Source: Escherichia coli (GTDB lineage: Bacteria > Pseudomonadota > Gammaproteobacteria > Enterobacterales > Enterobacteriaceae). Taken from it: DNA of 64,000 nucleotides. Below are positions 3,029 to 45,254 of this stretch, piece after piece. Each line of letters begins with the position of its first letter. The first letter of the stretch is position 1. Location of the stretch: NCBI RefSeq assembly GCF_016026235.1, contig NZ_CP065613.1; one strand, written 5' to 3'. The notes under the pieces are model-generated. The model searched no databases and was not told the DNA's origin. It saw only the letters and a list, made by a program, of their open reading frames with translations. Position numbers and translations under genes: made by a program.

Positions 3029-3060
3029 TTAGTGGTGATCAGGCTTTTTTTACAACTGTT

Positions 3061-3141
3061 TGAGAAGAGAAAAGAAAACCGCCGATCCTGTCCACCGCAT
3101 TACTGCAAGGTAGTGGACAAGACCGGCGGTCTTAAGTTTTT
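3061..3141 (-). terminator. Intrinsic terminator downstream of spy
   Basis: Inverted repeat accgccgatcctgtccac / gtggacaagaccggcggt (3078-3130), flanked by a T-run on the + side and a T-rich tract on the - side. Confidence 0.6.
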
Positions 3142-3152
3142 TGGCTGAAAGA

Positions 3153-3638
3153 TTATTCAGCAGTTGCAGGCATTTTACCTTTTGCCGCTGGACGTTCTGT
3201 CAGACGCTTCTCAAAATTAGCATTAAATTGCTTTTTCTGTTCCGGCGTCAGGATGTTGTAAATTTTGTTCTGGGTTTCCATGTGCGCCAGCATGTTAGCT
3301 TTGCGCTGTTCTTCCATTTTTGCGATCTGCGCTTCAGCTTTTGCTTTATCGAAGGTATCGCTGGCAATGATGTCATGCATTGCGCGGCGTTCTTCCAGCG
3401 GCGGACGTTTCATCTGGTCACGCTGGCCTTTCATGATTTCGCGGATCTGCTGTTTCTGCGCGTCGGTCAGGTTCAGGTCTTTGAACATCATGTCCTGATG
3501 CGGACCGAACTTGCCTTTGTGGTGCATCATCGGCTTCGCGTCAGCCGGTGCTGCGGTAGTGGTGTCTGCGGCATGGGCCAGGTTAGCCGCGCCAAGAGTC
3601 AGGGTAGAGGCAACAAACAGTGCAGTTAATTTACGCAT
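3153..3638 (-). CDS. spy: Periplasmic ATP-independent chaperone Spy
   Basis: 161-aa ORF with signal peptide MRKLTALFVASTLTLGAANLAHA and LTPEQKKQF region. Confidence 0.93.
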   Translation of the reverse strand: MRKLTALFVASTLTLGAANLAHAADTTTAAPADAKPMMHHKGKFGPHQDMMFKDLNLTDAQKQQIREIMKGQRDQMKRPPLEERRAMHDIIASDTFDKAKAEAQIAKMEEQRKANMLAHMETQNKIYNILTPEQKKQFNANFEKRLTERPAAKGKMPATAE

Positions 3639-3939
3639 ATTCTATATCCTTCCTTTCAGTTATTTATTACGGCTTTCTTAAGTAGCGTGCCGTGTTGACG
3701 AGATTAACTTTACTGACTTTAGCGTCAATTAATCAGAGCAACGGTAAAACAATGAAAGTGTAAAAAACACTTTTGCGCCAATTATGGAGAAAAAAAGAAA
3801 ATTTGATGGAGAGTGATGAGCGAATATTACAACACGATGATTTTGCAGAGATTATGAAGAACTATACCGGATGACTGGTGATAAATAAAGCAAATAACCA
3901 GGATTAATCTGTATTAATTTATAAGAAAGCAACTTAATA
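3639..3939 (-). promoter_or_regulatory. spy upstream regulatory region (envelope-stress regulated in K-12)
   Basis: 301-bp AT-rich intergenic region upstream of spy; no individual binding site could be placed with confidence. Confidence 0.3.
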
Positions 3940-3962
3940 CCCGCAGAATGATTTCTGCGGGT
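3940..3962 (-). terminator. Hairpin just downstream of astE (end of ast operon)
   Basis: cccgcagaa-tgat-ttctgcggg stem-loop 6 bp after the astE stop codon. Confidence 0.45.
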
Positions 3963-3967
3963 AAGTA

Positions 3968-10031
<6,064 letters not shown>

Positions 10032-15252: not shown

Positions 15253-16760
15253 TCTTTTTGCTGTGGGCGATGGTGGCGGTGATTTATGCACCGCTGATCC
15301 CGGCAGCTCTCACGCTGATATCGCCTGCGTTGTCGTTGACACACTGGCAGGCGTTATTTGCCGATCCACAGTTACCGCAGGCATTACTGGCAACGCTGGT
15401 GTCGACAACCATCGCGGCGGTCGGGGCATTGTTGATTGCCCTGCTGGTGATTGTGGCGCTATGGCCTGGGCCGAAATGGCAGCGTATGTGCGCCCGTCTG
15501 CCGTGGCTGCTCGCCATTCCCCATGTGGCTTTTGCCACCAGCGCCCTGCTGCTCTTTGCTGACGGAGGGCTGCTATATGACTATTTCCCGTATTTCACTC
15601 CGCCAATGGACCGATTTGGCATCGGTCTGGGCCTCACCCTTGCAGTGAAAGAAAGCGCATTTCTGCTGTGGATCTTAGCGGCAGTATTGAGCGAAAAACG
15701 GCTGTTGCAGCAGGTCATTGTGCTGGATTCGCTGGGCTACAGCCGCTGGCAATGCCTGAACTGGCTGCTGTTGCCCTCCGTCGCGCCTTCGCTGGCAATG
15801 GCGATGCTGGCGATTGTTGCCTGGTCGCTTTCGGTCGTGGATGTGGCGATTATTCTTGGGCCAGGTAATCCACCGACGCTGGCAGTAATTAGCTGGCAGT
15901 GGTTAACTCAGGGCGACGCGGATCAACAAACGAAAGGCGCACTCGCCAGTCTGCTGCTGATGCTGTTACTCGCCGCCTACGTTTTGCTGAGCTATCTGCT
16001 ATGGCGCAGCTGGCGGCGCACTATTCCCCGCGTAGATGGCATTCGCAAGCCTGCCACACCTTTATTACCAGGCACCACGCTGGCGAGTTTTTTACCCTTG
16101 ACCGGTGTGCTGTGTGTGGTTCTGCTGGCGATCCTCGCGGATCAGTCGACGATCAATAGTGAAGCGCTCATCAACAGCCTGACAATGGGGCTGGTGGCGA
16201 CATTCATCGCTTGGCTCCTGTTACTGCTGTGGCTGGAATGGGGGCCACAGCGTCGCCAGTTGTGGCTATGGTTGCCCATTTTATTACCGGCACTGCAGCT
16301 GGTGGCGGGCCAGTACACGCTGGCGCTATGGCTGAACATGGATGGAAGCTGGACGGCGGTGGTCTGGGGGCATCTGCTGTGGGTAATGCCGTGGATGCTG
16401 TTTATCCTGCAACCCGCCTGGCAGCGCATTGATTCACGGTTAATTTTGATTGCACAAACACTGGGCTGGTCGCGGGCCAAAATCTTCTTTTACGTGAAAT
16501 GTCCGCTTATGCTACGCCCTACGCTGATTGCCTTCGCGGTGGGATTTTCAGTCAGTATTGCGCAGTATATGCCGACGCTGTGGCTGGGCGCGGGGCGTTT
16601 TCCGACGCTCACCACTGAGGCGGTGGCATTAAGCAGCGGCGGCAGCAACGGTATTCTCGCCGCCCAGGCTTTATGGCAACTGCTATTACCGCTTACTATT
16701 TTTGCCCTGACCGCGTTAGTCGCAAAATGGGTAGGTTATGTCAGACAAGGACTCCGCTAA
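15225..16760 (+). CDS. ynjC: ABC transporter permease (fused two-domain)
   Basis: ORF 15201-16760; start at MVTPLRYALIF gives 511 aa; highly hydrophobic. Overlaps the ynjB 3' end. Confidence 0.78.
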   Translation: MVTPLRYALIFLLWAMVAVIYAPLIPAALTLISPALSLTHWQALFADPQLPQALLATLVSTTIAAVGALLIALLVIVALWPGPKWQRMCARLPWLLAIPHVAFATSALLLFADGGLLYDYFPYFTPPMDRFGIGLGLTLAVKESAFLLWILAAVLSEKRLLQQVIVLDSLGYSRWQCLNWLLLPSVAPSLAMAMLAIVAWSLSVVDVAIILGPGNPPTLAVISWQWLTQGDADQQTKGALASLLLMLLLAAYVLLSYLLWRSWRRTIPRVDGIRKPATPLLPGTTLASFLPLTGVLCVVLLAILADQSTINSEALINSLTMGLVATFIAWLLLLLWLEWGPQRRQLWLWLPILLPALQLVAGQYTLALWLNMDGSWTAVVWGHLLWVMPWMLFILQPAWQRIDSRLILIAQTLGWSRAKIFFYVKCPLMLRPTLIAFAVGFSVSIAQYMPTLWLGAGRFPTLTTEAVALSSGGSNGILAAQALWQLLLPLTIFALTALVAKWVGYVRQGLR

Positions 16761-17413
16761 TGCTCTGCGTGAAAAATGTTTCGCTACGTTTACCAGAAAG
16801 CCGCTTGCTGACAAACGTTAACTTTACGGTGGATAAAGGTGACATTGTCACGTTAATGGGTCCGTCTGGCTGTGGAAAATCCACTCTGTTTTCATGGATG
16901 ATTGGTGCACTGGCTGGACAGTTTTCTTGTACAGGTGAGCTATGGCTCAATGAGCAACGGATTGACATGCTACCCACCGCACAGCGTCATATTGGCATTC
17001 TTTTCCAGGATGCACTGTTATTTGACCAGTTCAGTGTCGGGCAAAATTTACTGCTGGCGCTACCGGCGACACTTAAGGGGAATGCCCGACGTAATGCCGT
17101 GAATGATGCACTTGAGCGTTCAGGCCTTGACGGAGCTTTCCATCAGGATCCTGCCACTTTGTCTGGCGGTCAGCGAGCGCGCGTTGCTCTGCTTCGCGCC
17201 CTTCTCGCTCAGCCAAAAGCGTTGCTACTGGATGAGCCATTCAGCCGTCTTGATGTGGCTCTGCGCGATAATTTTCGCCAGTGGGTGTTCAGCGAAGTTC
17301 GCGAACTGGCGATCCCCGTCGTTCAGGTAACGCACGATCTCCAGGATGTTCCTGCTGATAGTTCTGTTCTGGATATGGCGCAGTGGTCAGAAAATTACAA
17401 CAAACTGCGATAA
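16760..17413 (+). CDS. ynjD: ABC transporter ATP-binding protein
   Basis: Walker A GPSGCGKST and signature LSGGQRARV; 217 aa from MLCVKNVSL. Confidence 0.85.
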   Translation: MLCVKNVSLRLPESRLLTNVNFTVDKGDIVTLMGPSGCGKSTLFSWMIGALAGQFSCTGELWLNEQRIDMLPTAQRHIGILFQDALLFDQFSVGQNLLLALPATLKGNARRNAVNDALERSGLDGAFHQDPATLSGGQRARVALLRALLAQPKALLLDEPFSRLDVALRDNFRQWVFSEVRELAIPVVQVTHDLQDVPADSSVLDMAQWSENYNKLR

Positions 17414-17479
17414 CGCAAAGTTTTTCTCAATGCGTCAGTTCAGAATGGCGCACTCAAAACTACAATGTCGGGATTTTCG

Positions 17480-18788
17480 ATGAAACGTGTTTCTCAAATG
17501 ACCGCGCTGGCAATGGCTTTAAGGGCTGGCTTGCGCTTCTTCGTGGGCCGCTGAACTGGCGAAGCCTCTTACACTTGACCAGCTTCAACAACAAAATGGC
17601 AAAGCGATAGATACTCGCCCCAGCGCGTTTTATAACGGCTGGCCACAAACCTTAAATGGCCCTTCTGGTCATGAACCTGCCGCCTTAAACCTCTCTGCCA
17701 GCTGGCTCGACAAAATGAGCACCGAACAGCTCAACGCGTGGATCAAGCAACATAACCTGAAAGCCGATGCCCCGGTGGCGCTGTACGGTAATGACAAAGA
17801 TGTCGACGCCGTCAAAACGCGACTGCAAAAAGCAGGTTTTACGCATATCTCCATTCTGAGTGACGCGCTAAGCGAACCTTCCCGTCTACAAAAACTGCCG
17901 CACTTTGAGCAGCTGGTTTATCCGCAATGGCTGCACGACCTGCAACAAGGTAAAGAGGTTACGGCGAAACCTGCCGGTGACTGGAAAGTCATTGAAGCGG
18001 CCTGGGGCGCTCCTAAGCTTTACCTTATCAGCCATATTCCCGGTGCTGACTACATCGATACCAACGAAGTGGAAAGCGAACCGCTGTGGAACAAAGTTTC
18101 TGATGAACAACTAAAAGCGATGCTGGCAAAACACGGCATTCGCCATGACACCACGGTCATTCTGTACGGGCGTGACGTATACGCTGGAGCGCGTGTTGCG
18201 CAAATTATGCTCTACGCAGGCGTGAAAGATGTGCGTCTGCTGGATGGCGGCTGGCAAACCTGGTCCGACGCGGGACTGCCTGTTGAGCGAGGAACGCCAC
18301 CGAAAGTGAAAGCGGAACCGGATTTCGGCGTGAAGATCCCGGCACAACCGCAGTTGATGCTCGATATGGAACAGGCCCGTGGACTGCTGCATCGCCAGGA
18401 TGCATCGCTGGTGAGCATTCGTTCGTGGCCAGAATTTATCGGTACGACCAGCGGTTACAGCTATATTAAACCAAAAGGTGAAATAGCCGGAGCACGTTGG
18501 GGACACGCTGGTAGCGACTCGACGCATATGGAAGATTTTCATAACCCGGATGGCACCATGCGCAGCGCCGATGATATTACCGCTATGTGGAAAGCGTGGA
18601 ATATCAAACCAGAGCAGCAAGTTTCATTCTACTGCGGCACCGGCTGGCGCGCGTCCGAAACCTTTATGTACGCACGCGCCATGGGCTGGAATAACGTCTC
18701 CGTTTACGACGGCGGCTGGTACGAATGGAGCAGCGATCCAAAAAATCCGGTAGCAACCGGTGAACGCGGCCCGGACAGTAGCAAATAA
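17480..18788 (+). pseudogene. ynjE: Periplasmic rhodanese-domain sulfurtransferase YnjE, interrupted by a +1 bp frameshift in the signal peptide
   Basis: ATG at 17480 opens MKRVSQMTALAMAL then hits TGA after 24 codons; the remainder continues one frame over to 18788. Span is 1308 nt (435 aa plus stop) plus 1. Extra A at 17521/17522 (tttaaggg). Confidence 0.75.
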
Positions 18789-18796
18789 CATTGCAA

Positions 18797-19417
18797 TTAC
18801 TGACGCTGGAGCGACTTCAGCGTCAGATACCCACTCCACACCCGCGTAAAGGTCGTCATCCAGCACAACGCACCGAAGATCCACGCAAACCACGCAAACC
18901 ATGCAGGGAATAAACATCCCAGCACAAACAGTAAGATCGTTTCTGTGCCTTCGGTTAATCCCCCCAGATAGTAAAACGACTTATGTGCATAACCGGGGTT
19001 ATCAATCTGATGTTTTGCTGCCAGTGCAGCAAAGGCGAGAAAACTGCTGCCCGTGCCGATAAACGCAAACAACAACCAGCCGCCTGCCAGCGCATTTTGC
19101 TCCGGTGCAGCAAGAATAAAGCCAAACGGCACCAGCGCGTAAAAGAGAAAATCGAGAGAAATATCAAGAAAGCCGCCCGCGTCGGTAAGCTCTCTGCGCC
19201 GCGCCAGCGCACCGTCCAGACCATCAAGCAGCCTGTTCAACAAAATGACGACTAGCGCCGCCAGATACCAGCCCAGCGCCAGAAACGGCAGAGCCAGCAC
19301 GCCGATGGCAAATCCCACTAATGTTAAACCATCTGGCGTAATGCCCGGTTTATCAAGAACCCGCACGCACTGATGCAACAACGGTTTAATCCGGGGATGA
19401 AGATGGCGGTCTAGCAC
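18797..19417 (-). CDS. ynjF: CDP-alcohol phosphatidyltransferase family membrane protein
   Basis: ORF 18797-19423; second GTG gives 206 aa; DGxxAR motif (LDGLDGALARR). Confidence 0.75.
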   Translation of the reverse strand: MLDRHLHPRIKPLLHQCVRVLDKPGITPDGLTLVGFAIGVLALPFLALGWYLAALVVILLNRLLDGLDGALARRRELTDAGGFLDISLDFLFYALVPFGFILAAPEQNALAGGWLLFAFIGTGSSFLAFAALAAKHQIDNPGYAHKSFYYLGGLTEGTETILLFVLGCLFPAWFAWFAWIFGALCWMTTFTRVWSGYLTLKSLQRQ

Positions 19418-21844: not shown

Positions 21845-22885
21845 TTATGAGTATTTAACGGATGATGCTCCCCAGGGAACATTTCTTATGGGCCAACGGC
21901 ATTTCTTACTGTAGTGCTCCCAAAACTGCTTGTCGTAACGATAACACGCTTCAAGTTCAGCATCCGTTAACTTTCTGCGATAGCAGCAGATATGCCAGTA
22001 AAGAAATCCCATTAGACTATTTTTTTGATAATCTTCTTCGCTTTCGAACAACTCGTGCGCCTTTCGAGAAGCAAGCATTATATAATGCCAGGCCAGTTCT
22101 TCTTCAATTGTCCCGTTTTGAAAAGCTGTGCTTGATATCGAGATCATCCATGATAATTCCGCCGCCCATATTAGCTTCGCCGAGGATTTACCGGAGCGAT
22201 TATTAGCGCAATCAGAGATATAGTCTGAGGGAAAAACAGCAAATTTATTCAACAAGGCGATAACCTGCTCTGGGGCTTCCTCCATGTTTGCTTTAAAGGT
22301 ATTGGCTCCATGGTCGCCAGAAAGAAAATGCTCCATTAAGGCACAATAACTTTCGCTATCTTCGATACCCCATTGATCCTCTAAAGACTCGCGTCTTTTA
22401 CTTATGATATCGATCGAGTCAAAAGGAAGCACATGATATTGGAAGGTATCTTTGCCAGGTTCAGGCTTTCGCGGCCAGAACTCCAGCGTTTCAGACCATT
22501 GCTTATGATAGAATCGATAAGGTGCGATCAATTGTAGCGCCTGTAACTTCTCGATACTGAGCGGCTCAATACCTTTAGCCTGATAATAATGCAGTTGTTC
22601 TTTTTTTGCTTTAAAACCGGCCCGAACAATAAGCCCCATCATAATTAATAGATAAAGAAAAGAGCATCCCGCGGTAATCAGGCCTCTTTCATTCAAACCG
22701 TTGGATGTTATCGCTGCGAACACAAACATTACAGCGACAACACATGTTAAATAAAACCCCCACTTACAAAGCAGCATGGCCTTATTTTCTTTAATCATCC
22801 GTTCAAAATTACTATTAAATATTTCCCAGCCATTAAAAGAATACTTCTCGCTCCCAGGATGGTTTTGTAATAAAACTTTTTTCAT
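21845..22885 (-). CDS. ynjI: Inner membrane protein YnjI
   Basis: ORF 21845-23008; start at MKKVLLQNHPG gives 346 aa. Confidence 0.75.
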   Translation of the reverse strand: MKKVLLQNHPGSEKYSFNGWEIFNSNFERMIKENKAMLLCKWGFYLTCVVAVMFVFAAITSNGLNERGLITAGCSFLYLLIMMGLIVRAGFKAKKEQLHYYQAKGIEPLSIEKLQALQLIAPYRFYHKQWSETLEFWPRKPEPGKDTFQYHVLPFDSIDIISKRRESLEDQWGIEDSESYCALMEHFLSGDHGANTFKANMEEAPEQVIALLNKFAVFPSDYISDCANNRSGKSSAKLIWAAELSWMISISSTAFQNGTIEEELAWHYIMLASRKAHELFESEEDYQKNSLMGFLYWHICCYRRKLTDAELEACYRYDKQFWEHYSKKCRWPIRNVPWGASSVKYS

Positions 22886-23012
22886 CACATTCCCTGTTAT
22901 TACATACTTTAGAGGCGATAATTTTATCCATGCAAAAAAAATATCCAACGAATTTTCTTGATCCGCTGGATATTTCAGAATATGACTCGAATAGCACGAA
23001 AGATTCACTCGC

Positions 23013-24974
23013 TTACGCTATCGCCCCGCTTCCGACTTCATCTGCTGGCGGACTTTTTTTCGCACTACGTTTACGCGGTGCAGCCTTTTTCTTATCAGCA
23101 CTGCCACCACTGCCCGGAGCCACAATGCCGCGAAACTGCCGCACCGGCGTACGTTTGGCTTGATCAATAAGCTGATATAGCGTCCCCACCAGCGGCTGCA
23201 TAAAGTCCTGATAGCGACACTGCTTTTCGCTGATTTGCGTCAGCACCGATTCCCAGTGCGCGGTCATGTCCGGTCGCGTCGCCATTTCTGGCAGCGAATG
23301 GAATAACGCTTTTCCGGCGTCGGTAGAGTGGATATAGCGCCCTTTTTTGGTCAGAAAACCACGCTTGAACAGCAGTTCAATAATCCCGGCACGGGTTGCT
23401 TCTGTCCCCAGACCATCGGTCGCACGAAGGATCTTTTTCAGATCTTTGTCCTGCACAAAGCGCGCGATCCCGGTCATCGCCGAAAGCAGTGTTGCATCGG
23501 TAAAATGGCGCGGCGGCTGGGTTTGCCGCTCTACCACTTCACCTTTTTCACACAGCAACTCATCGCCTTTCGCCACCACAGGCAATGGCGTACCGTCGTT
23601 TTCTTCATCGCGCTCTTTGCTGCCTAACAGCGTGCGCCAGCCTGCTTCAGCAAGAAAACGGGCTTTAGCGACAAATTTGCCTTTGGCAATGTCCAGTTCG
23701 ATAACACACTTGCGGAACACCGCATCCGGGCAGAACTGCATCAGGTATTGACGGGCAATCAGGTTATAGACCTTCGCTTCGTTCTCCGTCAGGTTGATCG
23801 CAGAACTCCGTGCGGTCGGAATGATGGCGTGGTGCGCATCGACCTTTTTGTCATCCCAACAGCGGTTGCGTATATCTGGATCTACCACTGGCTGCGGCAA
23901 CAGATCCGGTGCATGAACACTGATGGCATTCATCACCGCGTGGCGTCCGGCAAAATGTTCTTCTGGCAAATAGCGACAATCGGAACGCGGATAAGTGATT
24001 AGCTTGTGCGTTTCGTACAGCTTCTGGCAGATATCAAGCACGTTCTGCGCGCTCAGACCAAAGCGTTTTGCCGCTTCAATCTGCAACGCCGAAAGCGAAA
24101 ACGGCAGCGGCGCGGATTCTGATTCCCGTTTATCGTTATAGCTGGTGACAATAGCCGGTTGACCACTAATGCGGTTAACTACATGCTCCGCCAGTGGACG
24201 ATGTAACAAGCGCCCTTCTTCATCCTGGTACGGTTCACACGCTTCGCTCGGTTGCCAGATAGCGGTAAACCGCTCATCGGCAGGTGTCACGATATGTGCT
24301 TTGACTTCAAAGAAGTCTTTCGCCACGAAGTTTTCAATCTCTTCATCGCGGCGCACCACCAGCCCAAGCACGGGCGTCTGCACGCGTCCCACGGAAAGTA
24401 CGCCCTGATAACCGGCATTGCGACCGAGAATGGTATACGCACGGGTCATATTGATGCCGTACAGCCAGTCGGCACGCGCTCGCGCCAGCGCAGAAACGCA
24501 CAGCGGTACAAACTCACTGTTGGAACGAAGACGGTCGATCGCCCGCTCAACCGCCTGCGGGTTCAGGTCGTTTATCAAGCAACGCTGTACCTGCTGGCGC
24601 TTTTCCGGTGCCAGTTGTAGATAGTCCAGCACTTCATCCACCAGCAGTTGCCCTTCGCGATCCGGGTCCCCGGCGTGAACGATTTCGCTGGCTTCATGCA
24701 GGTACCGTTTGATGACGTTAAGTTGTTTGGTCACGGAGGGTCGGGGCTGTAATTGCCACTTTTCCGGGACAATCGGCAAATCCGCAAGATTCCAGCGCGC
24801 ATAGCGGCTGTCGTAGGCGTCTGGCTGCGCCTGCTCAAGCAGGTGACCGATACACCAGGTCACCACCTGACCATTACCGCACTCGATAAAGCCATCGCCT
24901 TTCCGGTGCGGTTTGGGCAGGACATCAGCAATGGCGCGCGCCAGACTCGGTTTTTCGGCAATAAACAACCGCAT
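23013..24974 (-). CDS. topB: DNA topoisomerase III
   Basis: ORF 23013-25031; start at [16 protein letters not shown] gives 653 aa; Toprim/topoisomerase IA features. Confidence 0.93.
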
Positions 24975-34904: not shown

Positions 34905-34919
34905 GGTAATGACTCCAAC

Positions 34920-35423
34920 TTACTGATAGTGTTTTATGTTCAGATAATGCCCGATGACCTTGTCATGCAGCTCCACCGATTTTGAGAACGACAGTGACTT
35001 CCGTCCCAGCCTTGCCAGATGTTGTCTCAGATTCAGATTATGTCGCTCAATGCGCTGAGTGTAACGCTTGCTGATAACGTGCAGCTTTCCCTTCAGGCGT
35101 GATTCATACAGCGGCCAGCCATCCGTCATCCATACCACGACCTCAAAGGCCGACAGCAGGCTCAGAAGACGCTCCAGTGTGGCCAGAGTGCGTTCACCGA
35201 AGACGTGCGCCACAACCGTCCTCCGTATCCTGTCATACGCGTAAAACAGCCAGCGCTGACGTGATTTAGCACCGACGTAGCCCCACTGTTCGTCCATTTC
35301 AGCGCAGACAATCACATCACTGCCCGGTTGTATGCGCGAGGTTACCGACTGCGGCCTGAGTTTTTTAAGTGACGTAAAACCGTGTTGAGGCCAACGCCCA
35401 TAATGCGTGCACTGGCGCGACAT
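34920..35423 (-). CDS. insB: IS1 InsB (transposase C-terminal part, expressed as InsAB' by -1 frameshift)
   Basis: 167-aa [19 protein letters not shown]...; overlaps insA in the -1 frame. Confidence 0.9.
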
Positions 35424-35617
35424 CCGACGCCATTCATGGCCATATCAATGATTTTCTGGTGCGTACCGGGCTGAGAGGCGGTGTAAGTGAACTGTAGTTG
35501 CCATGTTTTACGGCAATGAGAGCAGAGATAGCGCTGATGTCCGGCAGTGCTTTTGCCGTTACGCACCACGCCTTCAGTAGCGGAGCAGGAAGGACATCTG
35601 ATGGAAATGGAAGCCAC
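35342..35617 (-). CDS. insA: IS1 InsA (transposition inhibitor / N-terminal part of transposase)
   Basis: 91-aa [25 protein letters not shown]... with zinc-finger-like CxxC...CxxC. Confidence 0.92.
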
Positions 35618-35672
35618 GCAAGCACCTTAAAATCACCATCATACACTAAATCAGTAAGTTGGCAGCATTACC

Positions 35673-37628: not shown

Positions 37629-39008
37629 TTATTTATTGGCTACTGCATCAATACTTAAACTTTCAACGGAGACACCTTTGGTTTCGATTCCAATGGTGGC
37701 GATAGCAATTGCGACAATAATTGAAACCGCCCCCAGAAGAATAAAGACTCCCGTAACGCCATAACTACTGAGCAGCACTGCAACGGCATAAGGTGCGGCA
37801 ATACCACTGATTCGCCCTACCGCATTCGCCAGACCGGAGCCACGGAGTTTGGCCTCTGTCGGCCAGATCTCAGGGACATACACTGCCGAGGCATAGCAAA
37901 CGTACATATAGACGAAAGTAATCAGGAAGAAACCAATCAACGTTATGAGCAACATGCTGGTTTGCAGTGAATAGATATATCCGAGCACCGCAATCAGGAT
38001 TAATAGCCCCACACCCATTGTTTTACGCGGAATTTTATCCATCACCAGCATGGCAATAAAAATGCCAAATGGCGCGCCAAACATACTCATGGTATTTAAA
38101 ACAATCGAGTCTTTTAAATTAATCCCCTGGGTCATGAATATCGTTGGCAACCAGTTAATTAGTGTGTACTGCACAACGTTCATGGCAATCAGCACACAAG
38201 AGCCTAATATCACGCGTTTCAGTAATACTCCTGTCAGTAAGGCTGAATACGGCACCGCTTGTGGCGTTTTACCGTCATCAGCAATAACCACGGGCGGCAA
38301 AGGTTTGCCCGTCTGGTGTATGACGCCTTCTTCTATACTCCGCATGACTTTCTCGGCTTCCTGATACCGTCCGCGCGATTCCAGCCAGCGCGGGGATTCA
38401 GGAAAGTAGCGCCAGGCCAGCGCCGTAGCGATAAGCGACAATATTGCAGGGATAAGCAGTTGTACCCGCCAGTTCCACTCTGCACTAATCAGCGGCGTGA
38501 GTCCCATCGCTATCAATGAACAGAGCGGATATGACCAGTTGCCAATAAAGGAAACCCGACTTGACCACGTTCCACGATTTCTACCGGGCATATATTCGGT
38601 GAAACCAGCAAACAGCGTAACCAGTAAAGCTCCCAGCCCAACTCCCATCACAAAACGGCAGGCAATAAGGAAATCCATATTCGGTGAGAAAGCACCGACA
38701 ACCATCGAGGCAATATGAATGGCCTCATAGAGGATGAACGCATTTCTGCGACCGGTTTTGTCGCCAATGATGCCGCCCACCAGCGCACCGAGAAACATTC
38801 CGGCGGTCGTGATTGCTGAGAATGTGGCTGTGGTGGAATTATCTGTCCAGCCCAACGCTTTCAGCTGCGCGAGGATCAAGCCACCAACGGCATTACTCCA
38901 GCAGACAAGCAAGCCAAACGCGACGATGGCAAACATTGACGAATGCCAGCGGCAATCCGGTAAGCGATCCAGCCGTGCACCACAATGCGGTTTTGTTATC
39001 TGTTCCAT
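37629..39008 (-). CDS. ydjK: MFS sugar transporter
   Basis: 459-aa hydrophobic ORF, sugar-porter family. Confidence 0.82.
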   Translation of the reverse strand: MEQITKPHCGARLDRLPDCRWHSSMFAIVAFGLLVCWSNAVGGLILAQLKALGWTDNSTTATFSAITTAGMFLGALVGGIIGDKTGRRNAFILYEAIHIASMVVGAFSPNMDFLIACRFVMGVGLGALLVTLFAGFTEYMPGRNRGTWSSRVSFIGNWSYPLCSLIAMGLTPLISAEWNWRVQLLIPAILSLIATALAWRYFPESPRWLESRGRYQEAEKVMRSIEEGVIHQTGKPLPPVVIADDGKTPQAVPYSALLTGVLLKRVILGSCVLIAMNVVQYTLINWLPTIFMTQGINLKDSIVLNTMSMFGAPFGIFIAMLVMDKIPRKTMGVGLLILIAVLGYIYSLQTSMLLITLIGFFLITFVYMYVCYASAVYVPEIWPTEAKLRGSGLANAVGRISGIAAPYAVAVLLSSYGVTGVFILLGAVSIIVAIAIATIGIETKGVSVESLSIDAVANK

Positions 39009-43563: not shown

Positions 43564-44418
43564 TCACACCATATCCAGCGCAGTTTTTCCTTTTGGTGCC
43601 GGATATGCTTTGTCCAGCATGGCTAATTCCGCTGACGAAAGTTCGACCTCAAGCACAGCCGCATTCTGTTGGACATGGGCAATCGTGGCCGCTTTTGGAA
43701 TCGCCATCACACCCTGATGGCTGATTACCCACGCCAACAATACTTGTGCCGCGCTGATATTGTGAGCATGTGCAATTTCGTTGACTACCGCGTTTTTTAA
43801 CAGTCCATTGCGCAACCGCCCGGCCTGGGCTAATGGACTGTAAGCCATCACCGGCATCTGCTGTTGCTGGCACCAGGGGAGTAGATCGTACTCAATCCCT
43901 CGTGAACCGAGATGGTAAAGCACCTGATTAGTGGCACACTGATTTCCCCCCGGCAGCTGCCAGAGTTCCTGCATATCAGCATGATCAAGGTTAGAAACGC
44001 CCCAGCGGCGGATTTTTCCCTGGGCGATCAATTTTTCCATCGCTGCCACAGTCTCTTCAAAAGCGAAACTGCCAGACCAGTGTAATAAGTAGAGATCGAG
44101 ATAATCAGTATTGAGACGGCGTAAACTGGCTTCGCATGCATTTATCGCTTTTTGCCCGCCAGCATTCCACGGATAGACTTTAGAGACGAGAAAGACGTTA
44201 TCGCGCAGACCGGTTAATGCTTCCCCAACCACCTTTTCGGCACCGCCATCGGCATACATTTCGGCGGTATCAATGAGGGTTAAACCGAGCTCAATGCCCG
44301 CGCGTAGTGCAGCAACTTCTGTTTTGCGCTGACTGGCATCTTCGCCCATATACCATGTTCCCTGCCCTATGGCTGGCAGTGAGACATCGCCACTAAATTG
44401 AATCATTTTTTGTTGCAT
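43564..44418 (-). CDS. yeaE: Aldo-keto reductase
   Basis: 284-aa ORF, AKR family. Confidence 0.85.
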   Translation of the reverse strand: MQQKMIQFSGDVSLPAIGQGTWYMGEDASQRKTEVAALRAGIELGLTLIDTAEMYADGGAEKVVGEALTGLRDNVFLVSKVYPWNAGGQKAINACEASLRRLNTDYLDLYLLHWSGSFAFEETVAAMEKLIAQGKIRRWGVSNLDHADMQELWQLPGGNQCATNQVLYHLGSRGIEYDLLPWCQQQQMPVMAYSPLAQAGRLRNGLLKNAVVNEIAHAHNISAAQVLLAWVISHQGVMAIPKAATIAHVQQNAAVLEVELSSAELAMLDKAYPAPKGKTALDMV

Positions 44419-44451
44419 TGTTTCCTCCCAGGTATTGCACCACCGTAATGC

Positions 44452-44477
44452 AAAACAGGGCGTGACGCCCTGTTTTT
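44452..44477 (-). terminator. Intrinsic terminator downstream of mipA
   Basis: cagggcgtgacgccctg stem with flanking T-runs. Confidence 0.6.
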
Positions 44478-44507
44478 ATGCACAAAATGCCCTGGAAAGA
44501 TGCATTA

Positions 44508-45254
44508 TCAGAATTTGTAGGTGATCCCGGTAGAAATCAGGCCAGTCCAGGATTTATCCACCATCGGGCTGTCAGTAACTTCATCAGACTGACGGGTATA
44601 GCGCGCGGTACCGTAAACACTCCAGTCGCCGAGGAAGTTGTAGCTGGCGCTCAGCTCCAGGTAAGGGCTCCAGCTGTCGTTCGGGTTATAGCCACGCAGA
44701 CCGCTGCGAGCGGACTCTTTGCGCGATACGCCATAATAGTATTCGTTCTGGTTTTCGCTGTTCCACTGCACACCGATACCCGGGGTCACGGTCAGGCCGC
44801 CGTTGGTGTAACGATACAACCAGGCCATATCCCAGACGATGCCGTTGCTGTTATCCAGGGTATCGCCAGCCAGGGTGGTACGCAGGTAACCGTACTGGGT
44901 AAAGTGAGCATAAGACAGACCAGCCATCATGGTGCTCTTACGGTCATCCAGGTGACGCATTTGGTGATCGCCACTGTCTTTCGCTTTGAAGTAAAGCGGC
45001 GACCAATAAGCGGTAATTGAAAGTTTGTCCGTTGCGTCATTCCACAGGTAGTAACCACCACCTAAGCCACGGAACCAGAAGTTATCGCCTTCATAGTTGA
45101 TTACCGGTACTGGGTAAACATCGGTATCGTAATCTTTATATGGGTGTTCAACGACACCTACGCCTGCGCCCAGGGAAAATTTACCTTCAGCGTGCGCTAC
45201 GCCTGCAGACGTTGCGATAAGCACTCCAAGTGCCAGAAGTTTGAGTTTGGTCAC
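44508..45254 (-). CDS. mipA: MltA-interacting outer membrane protein
   Basis: 248-aa ORF with signal peptide and C-terminal aromatic residue (…GITYKF). Confidence 0.88.
   Translation of the reverse strand: MTKLKLLALGVLIATSAGVAHAEGKFSLGAGVGVVEHPYKDYDTDVYPVPVINYEGDNFWFRGLGGGYYLWNDATDKLSITAYWSPLYFKAKDSGDHQMRHLDDRKSTMMAGLSYAHFTQYGYLRTTLAGDTLDNSNGIVWDMAWLYRYTNGGLTVTPGIGVQWNSENQNEYYYGVSRKESARSGLRGYNPNDSWSPYLELSASYNFLGDWSVYGTARYTRQSDEVTDSPMVDKSWTGLISTGITYKF

Follow-up and report, generated by a model that had tools for sequence, protein, structure and literature searches.

A recent one-base insertion has turned ynjE into a frameshift pseudogene in one lineage of an IS-rich Escherichia coli clone

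The window analysed in this study is a 64,000-nt stretch of the Escherichia coli contig NZ_CP065613.1, and coordinates refer to positions within it unless another sequence is named. Downstream of ynjABCD it carries, on the plus strand, a ynjE locus (17480-18788), which is located between ynjD (16760-17413, plus strand) and ynjF (18797-19417, minus strand) and is convergent with the latter. The order ynjD-ynjE-ynjF is the same as in MG1655 and in FDAARGOS_943 (annotation transferred by alignment). The ynjE span comprises 1309 nt, compared with 1308 nt in MG1655 (L001, positions 3041-4348). A promoter and terminator scan around ynjE yielded one promoter-like match (17439-17466), which is no more than shuffled sequences give (1 found, 1.1 expected). 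This match, a sigma-70-like pair of the hexamers TTCAGA and TACAAT spaced by 16 nt, has its 3' end 14 nt upstream of the ATG of ynjE and would imply a very short leader.

Reading from the ATG at 17480, the codons are atg aaa cgt gtt tct caa atg acc gcg ctg gca atg gct tta, and these are followed by agg gct ggc ttg cgc ttc ttc gtg ggc cgc tga. This frame encodes MKRVSQMTALAMAL and then RAGLRFFVGR (together MKRVSQMTALAMALRAGLRFFVGR), and constitutes a short ORF of 24 codons plus a TGA at 17552-17554 (17480-17554, plus strand), within which AGG (17522-17524) is the first out-of-frame codon. The frame entered at 17523 encodes GLACASSWAAELAKPLTLDQ and onwards, and stays open until the TAA at 18786-18788. 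Apart from being out of frame, this remainder of the gene (17523-18788, plus strand; frame translation and Pfam) is undamaged and encodes YnjE residues 15-435. Base-by-base alignments with MG1655 and with FDAARGOS_943 revealed that the two parts are separated by a single extra A at 17521/17522 (plus strand), where AA stands in place of a single A and TTTAGGG has become TTTAAGGG. The insertion point lies between codons 14 and 15 (Leu14 and Gly15). The resulting frameshift is a deterministic fact of the sequence, in which chance is no factor. The longest conventional ORF left at the locus begins at Met79 and encodes 357 aa (17715-18788, plus strand; listed as STL96684.1), and the codon of the active-site Cys385 (18633-18635, plus strand) is intact but untranslated. 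A repeat that could support phase variation was also sought at the indel, and the tract there is merely AA, placed between TTT and GGG. Since neither a homopolymer nor a short tandem repeat occurs at this position, phase variation of ynjE was rejected.

With the extra base removed, the locus encodes a protein of 435 residues, which matches the solved structures 3ipo_A (E 1.3e-287, residues 20-435) and 2wlr_A (E 2.1e-285, residues 23-435). It contains three Pfam PF00581 rhodanese domains (residues 34-129, 177-263 and 297-418) and, within the C-terminal one, a CGTGWR loop with the cysteine at position 385. Only 5 of the 435 residues differ from MG1655 YnjE (L66P, T95A, L120F, A236G and K404N). 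NCBIfam searches returned general rhodanese, SseA and GlpE models, all of them below the curated cut-offs, and no YnjE-specific model was among the matches; at the sequence level, membership is settled by identity to the solved protein. The E. coli K-12 counterpart (b1757; PDB 3ipo/3ipp and 2wlr/2wlx) is a periplasmic three-domain rhodanese sulfurtransferase, and the repaired window allele shares with it the genomic position, the three rhodanese domains and the Cys385 loop.

The N-terminus of the repaired protein has the layout of a Sec signal peptide, with K2 and R3 followed by a hydrophobic peak at residues 7-19 and by S21-W22-A23 before the predicted cut. The corresponding stretch (residues 1-23, MKRVSQMTALAMALGLACASSWA; 17480-17549, plus strand) was delimited from hydropathy, the -3/-1 residues, PDB constructs and published data. 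Crystallisation was performed with constructs starting at residues 20 and 23, and in a published study that describes YnjE as periplasmic, the signal sequence was left out of the 1239-bp construct (PMC10215317); the size of this latter construct is consistent with cleavage after A23. The statements made here on the domains and signal peptide of YnjE are thus based on Pfam, on the PDB construct boundaries and on PMC10215317. As the insertion falls between Leu14 and Gly15, it is the hydrophobic core of the signal peptide that is hit. In contrast to the K-12 gene, the frame of the window allele is broken after codon 14 and encodes a 24-residue peptide, and there is no uninterrupted ORF joining the Sec signal peptide to mature YnjE. 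Because of the stop after 24 codons, the locus was filed as a ynjE pseudogene and not as a working member of the family. These observations agree with the original prediction, which had been made from the letters of the window. It was correct in each detail as to the two frames, the RAGLRFFVGR tail and the stop at 17552-17554, and the extra A and the 1308 + 1 nt span which it proposed are seen in both alignments. Its gene call is upheld by synteny, by the match to the solved structures, by the three rhodanese domains and by the CGTGWR loop, and the lesion does lie within the signal peptide, inside the hydrophobic core of its 23 residues.

The occurrence of the insertion was then assessed by k-mer counts. 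A 41-mer carrying AA across the lesion was present in 0 of 5,426 complete E. coli genomes, while the single-A 40-mer, which served as a positive control, was found in 5,407 of them, and AA is therefore no common variant of ynjE. The counter-case considered in the original prediction, i.e. reference ynjE genes having the same sequence and an annotated downstream start, is absent from this set. A shared or ancestral AA variant with such a start was consequently rejected, and the sole downstream-start annotation found is an automated call on the same broken allele (STL96684.1, 357 aa).

The same TTTAAGGG occurs in the Logan assembly of run SRR13627093, on a separately assembled contig that agrees with the window at every one of 7,074 nt surrounding ynjE; another stretch of this contig is identical over the 12,206 nt which it has in common with the window. 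Moreover, no fewer than 24 contigs (from 2-5 kb to more than 1 Mb in length) in 27 blocks of a public collection bear a gene call for the 357-aa remnant. One of these approximately 24-27 other contigs, that of SRR13627093, was inspected base by base, and the at least 24 contigs may represent separate isolates or repeat sequencing of one strain. An ORF of 357 aa is called only if the 5' end of ynjE is broken, and its presence on at least 24 contigs therefore speaks against an artefact.

The complete genome nearest to the window is FDAARGOS_943 (NZ_CP065615.1; 99.93% identity), the next best reaching 98.7%. Over the approximately 61 kb compared, the two sequences are distinguished by about 45 substitutions, several IS insertions and two small indels, namely the A in ynjE and a GC in cho. 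Within a colinear block of 28.3 kb, the A in ynjE is the only indel, accompanied by 19 substitutions. The ynjE gene of FDAARGOS_943 is intact (WP_096854324.1) and differs from the window allele by one base; its product is identical to the repaired window protein, which indicates that no further changes have yet accumulated in ynjE. The second indel, a GC added at 2143-2144 (GCGC to GCGCGC), causes a +2 frameshift of the excinuclease gene cho, whose ORF (1526-2206) is followed by an out-of-frame part reaching to about 2415, leaving 226 of the 295 aa expected. At least 24 contigs, distributed over 28 blocks, carry this frameshift. The NCBI draft GCA_902503985.1 is among the carriers; over 12.2 kb, it is separated from the window by 5 SNPs.

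The ynjE region of GCA_902503985.1 was reached via the private AstD P482L variant of this draft. It contains a single A and encodes 435 aa, although the cho +2 frameshift is present in the same genome. Both FDAARGOS_943 and this draft, which belong to the same clonal background as the window strain, thus retain TTTAGGG and a 435-aa product, in contrast to the broken window allele. In FDAARGOS_943 both cho and ynjE are intact, whereas in the window and in SRR13627093 both are frameshifted. As GCA_902503985.1 has the cho lesion and an intact ynjE, the cho frameshift is older than the additional A in ynjE. Read from these genomes, the order of events runs from both genes intact (the state of FDAARGOS_943), through the cho frameshift (the state of GCA_902503985.1), to the insertion in ynjE (the window strain and SRR13627093).

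The surroundings of the locus show further signs of gene decay. In the window, the sugar kinase gene ydjH is interrupted close to its 5' end by an IS1 copy (34905-35672) flanked by a duplicated 9-bp target (GCGGCACCT). This IS1 copy is absent from FDAARGOS_943, and coordinate arithmetic places the end of the SRR13627093 contig about 30 nt inside it, which is consistent with the same ydjH insertion in that genome. FDAARGOS_943 has three other IS1 copies, none of which is found in the window: one next to spy/astE (L002, 9024-9791), one between ydjE and ydjF (38090-38857) and one inside ydjK (43773-44541), lying opposite window positions of about 3798, 32085 and 37770, respectively. An IS66 between nimT and nimR (L004, about 15766-18271) and an IS5 inside a diguanylate cyclase gene (about 22187-23100) are also present in FDAARGOS_943 and missing from the window (opposite about 54390 and 50481, respectively). 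In addition, astE has an internal stop in FDAARGOS_943, whereas the window astE ORF (3968-4936) is intact. The window strain and FDAARGOS_943 are decaying independently.

FDAARGOS_943 also possesses a 155-kb plasmid (NZ_CP065616.1; L005/L006), of which the first two thirds were covered. It carries an IncFII replicon, sepA, virK, capU, phoC and a truncated gene for an IpaH-type NEL ubiquitin ligase, as well as F4-like fimbrial genes and many copies of IS600, ISSfl3 and IS1, and resembles the backbone of a Shigella/EIEC invasion plasmid. The clone is probably an enteroinvasive-type one undergoing gene decay, the plasmid evidence coming from the relative FDAARGOS_943. Decay in Shigella and enteroinvasive E. 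coli combines IS expansion with pseudogenes formed by point mutation, and the 64 kb examined here likewise contain frameshifted cho and ynjE and an IS1-disrupted ydjH. The same pattern is visible in the nearest relative, with its further IS insertions, its astE nonsense mutation and its invasion-plasmid genes.

As regards the consequence of the insertion, ribosomes starting at the ATG at 17480 would be expected to incorporate 14 native and 10 out-of-frame residues and to terminate at 17552-17554; the three-domain rhodanese would not be made and a 24-residue peptide would be formed in its place. No ATG, GTG or TTG was found in the YnjE frame between 17523 and 17715, the latter being the codon of Met79. 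The anti-SD duplex energy at 17715 is -2.2 kcal/mol (weak), compared with -4.1 kcal/mol at the native ynjE start, and a product begun at Met79 would have neither the signal peptide nor the N-terminal 45 of the 96 residues that Pfam assigns to rhodanese domain 1. Three codons were considered as alternative ynjE starts and rejected: CTG at 17526, which abuts an SD-like AAGGG with zero spacing, and CTG at 17556 and ATG at 17715, both on account of weak SD pairing. Given that the catalytic part has no export signal and that no usable internal start exists, we infer that periplasmic YnjE is most likely absent, which would make this a null or near-null allele. To this extent the reading frame supports the original claim that no product would reach the periplasm. 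As ynjF is encoded on the opposite strand, no downstream gene is affected and polarity is not an issue.

The loss of YnjE seems to be of little consequence for the cell. A ynjE deletion was found to have normal HAP and chlorate phenotypes, in assays that depend on the molybdenum cofactor (PMC3831636), YnjE was described as having poor sulfurtransferase activity and an unclear physiological substrate (PMC10215317), and a strain deleted for eight rhodaneses grows as the wild type (PMC10215317). Since no phenotype results from the published ynjE deletions, the loss is best read as neutral decay or drift and not as adaptation. Taken as a whole, the explanation that the lesion is a genuine, heritable and recent one-base insertion, null or nearly null in its effect and a product of neutral decay, is very probably correct. 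One A would have been duplicated between codons 14 and 15 of ynjE, recently, in a sub-lineage of an IS-rich and probably enteroinvasive-type E. coli clone.

Several other explanations were weighed against this one. The source assembly, probably a long-read NCTC one whose longest contig measures 4.56 Mb, might have miscalled A as AA, in which case ynjE would really be intact. Single-base indels are frequent in long-read assemblies, and the accession style of STL96684.1 (the sole basis for this point) resembles that of a long-read reference-collection series. However, the change from A to AA is not located in a long homopolymer, where such errors concentrate, and the comparison with FDAARGOS_943 over about 61 kb disclosed only two small indels, the other of which (the GC in cho) was confirmed in independent assemblies including the NCBI draft. 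A sequencing error was rejected because AA recurs in the separately assembled SRR13627093 contig and the remnant ORF on at least 24 contigs, and it is very unlikely that a single A is the true sequence. Equally improbable would be a shortened, cytoplasmic YnjE that keeps a role as a sulfur carrier and is produced by internal initiation at Met79 (ATG at 17715) or by reinitiation at the CTG at 17556. This CTG begins 2 nt past the TGA of the short ORF, adjoining its stop, and would place the start at Leu26, immediately after the point of signal-peptide cleavage. In favour of such a product, the reading frame from 17523 onwards is free of damage. SD pairing is nevertheless weak at both candidates (-2.2 kcal/mol at 17715 and -2.6 kcal/mol at 17556). 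CTG is also a very poor initiator in E. coli, which counts against a start at 17556, and the Met79 product, in which roughly half of rhodanese domain 1 (Pfam 34-129) is missing, would probably misfold. Cytoplasmic expression of YnjE lacking the signal sequence gives a soluble protein (PMC10215317), and a function as alternative sulfur carrier in molybdopterin synthesis has been considered for YnjE, but this proposed cytoplasmic role was judged to be limited (PMC3831636).

A further possibility is that the gene is attenuated and not dead, with ribosomes stalling on the hungry AGG codon and skipping one base to GGG, and that a useful level of wild-type pre-YnjE is obtained in this way. The insertion would then have accidentally created a UUA-AGG-G slip site, and the "pseudogene" would be a low-output functional allele making exportable wild-type YnjE; both the leaky frameshifting and this reading of the allele are highly improbable. 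AGG (17522-17524) is indeed the rarest sense codon in the 44 neighbouring genes (14 of 13,286 codons, i.e. 1.05 per 1000), as expected of a hungry A-site codon, and a +1 slip at this site would leave no foreign residue, as the sequence reads UUA (Leu14), a skipped A and GGG (Gly15). A precedent is provided by a +1-nt insertion in E. coli rpoB (Huseby et al. 2020, PMC7022156), which was suppressed at 5% on CCC-AGG-C with no other signals; as in ynjE, the rare AGG is in frame at or after the lesion and a +1 slip restores the native frame. In E. coli, non-programmed suppression of frameshifts has likewise been observed at an aggregate level of 1-10% (PMC10861913), and by analogy some residual YnjE may be made by frameshift suppression. 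Nonetheless, the published cases require re-pairing of the P-site tRNA in the +1 frame (CCC to CCA, CUU to UUA or UUU), whereas a shift from UUA to UAA would, according to pairing rules, produce a central A:A mismatch with the tRNA-Leu(UAA) anticodon. When set beside programmed or efficient +1 sites (prfB CUU-UGA-C, Ty1 CUU-AGG-C and rpoB-FS CCC-AGG-C), the ynjE site has the hungry codon and lacks both P-site re-pairing and conservation, and an SD-like stimulator upstream, such as that of prfB, is absent from its sequence. The rpoB effect, moreover, hinged on very high expression, which depleted tRNA-Arg(CCU), and on feedback up-regulation (PMC7022156). In contrast, ynjE is non-essential, is not known to be highly expressed and has no known feedback up-regulation. 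AA is present in none of the 5,426 complete genomes and the closest relatives have a single A; this lack of conservation among sister isolates indicates that the site is not a programmed frameshift site. If the leaky reading were nevertheless true, the allele would represent in nature what the rpoB insertion at CCC-AGG-C is in the laboratory, and the pseudogene call would mispredict the phenotype. Finally, the null allele might have been selected, as a pathoadaptive inactivation in an invasive lineage, rather than having drifted. The lineage appears to be enteroinvasive-type and to be shedding genes, and the allele was found on at least 24 contigs, but the abundance of the clone in databases may be mere sampling. 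The lesion has a single origin in one sub-lineage, without any sign of convergence, and it is missing from all 5,426 complete genomes, nearly all of which have an intact 5' end. Together with the lack of a phenotype in ynjE deletion mutants (PMC10215317, PMC3831636), this makes selected loss unlikely, with a small probability left to it.

The frameshift described here has thus made an ordinary pseudogene, recent and restricted to one lineage, out of ynjE, a well-known gene that appears to be dispensable. The importance of the lesion beyond bookkeeping is slight. In STL96684.1, encoded on a 4.56-Mb contig, the 357-aa remnant (17715-18788) is listed as a "putative thiosulfate sulfurtransferase", and the pseudogene is unflagged. 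The strain, together with the close relatives sharing the allele, should be annotated as ynjE-negative. YnjE is a protein without an established physiological role, and a natural null allele existing beside the near-isogenic intact alleles of FDAARGOS_943 and GCA_902503985.1 offers a modestly convenient comparison rather than a discovery. For the IS-rich E. coli clone itself, the insertion adds one ordered step to the history of its decay, in which cho was affected first and ynjE afterwards.
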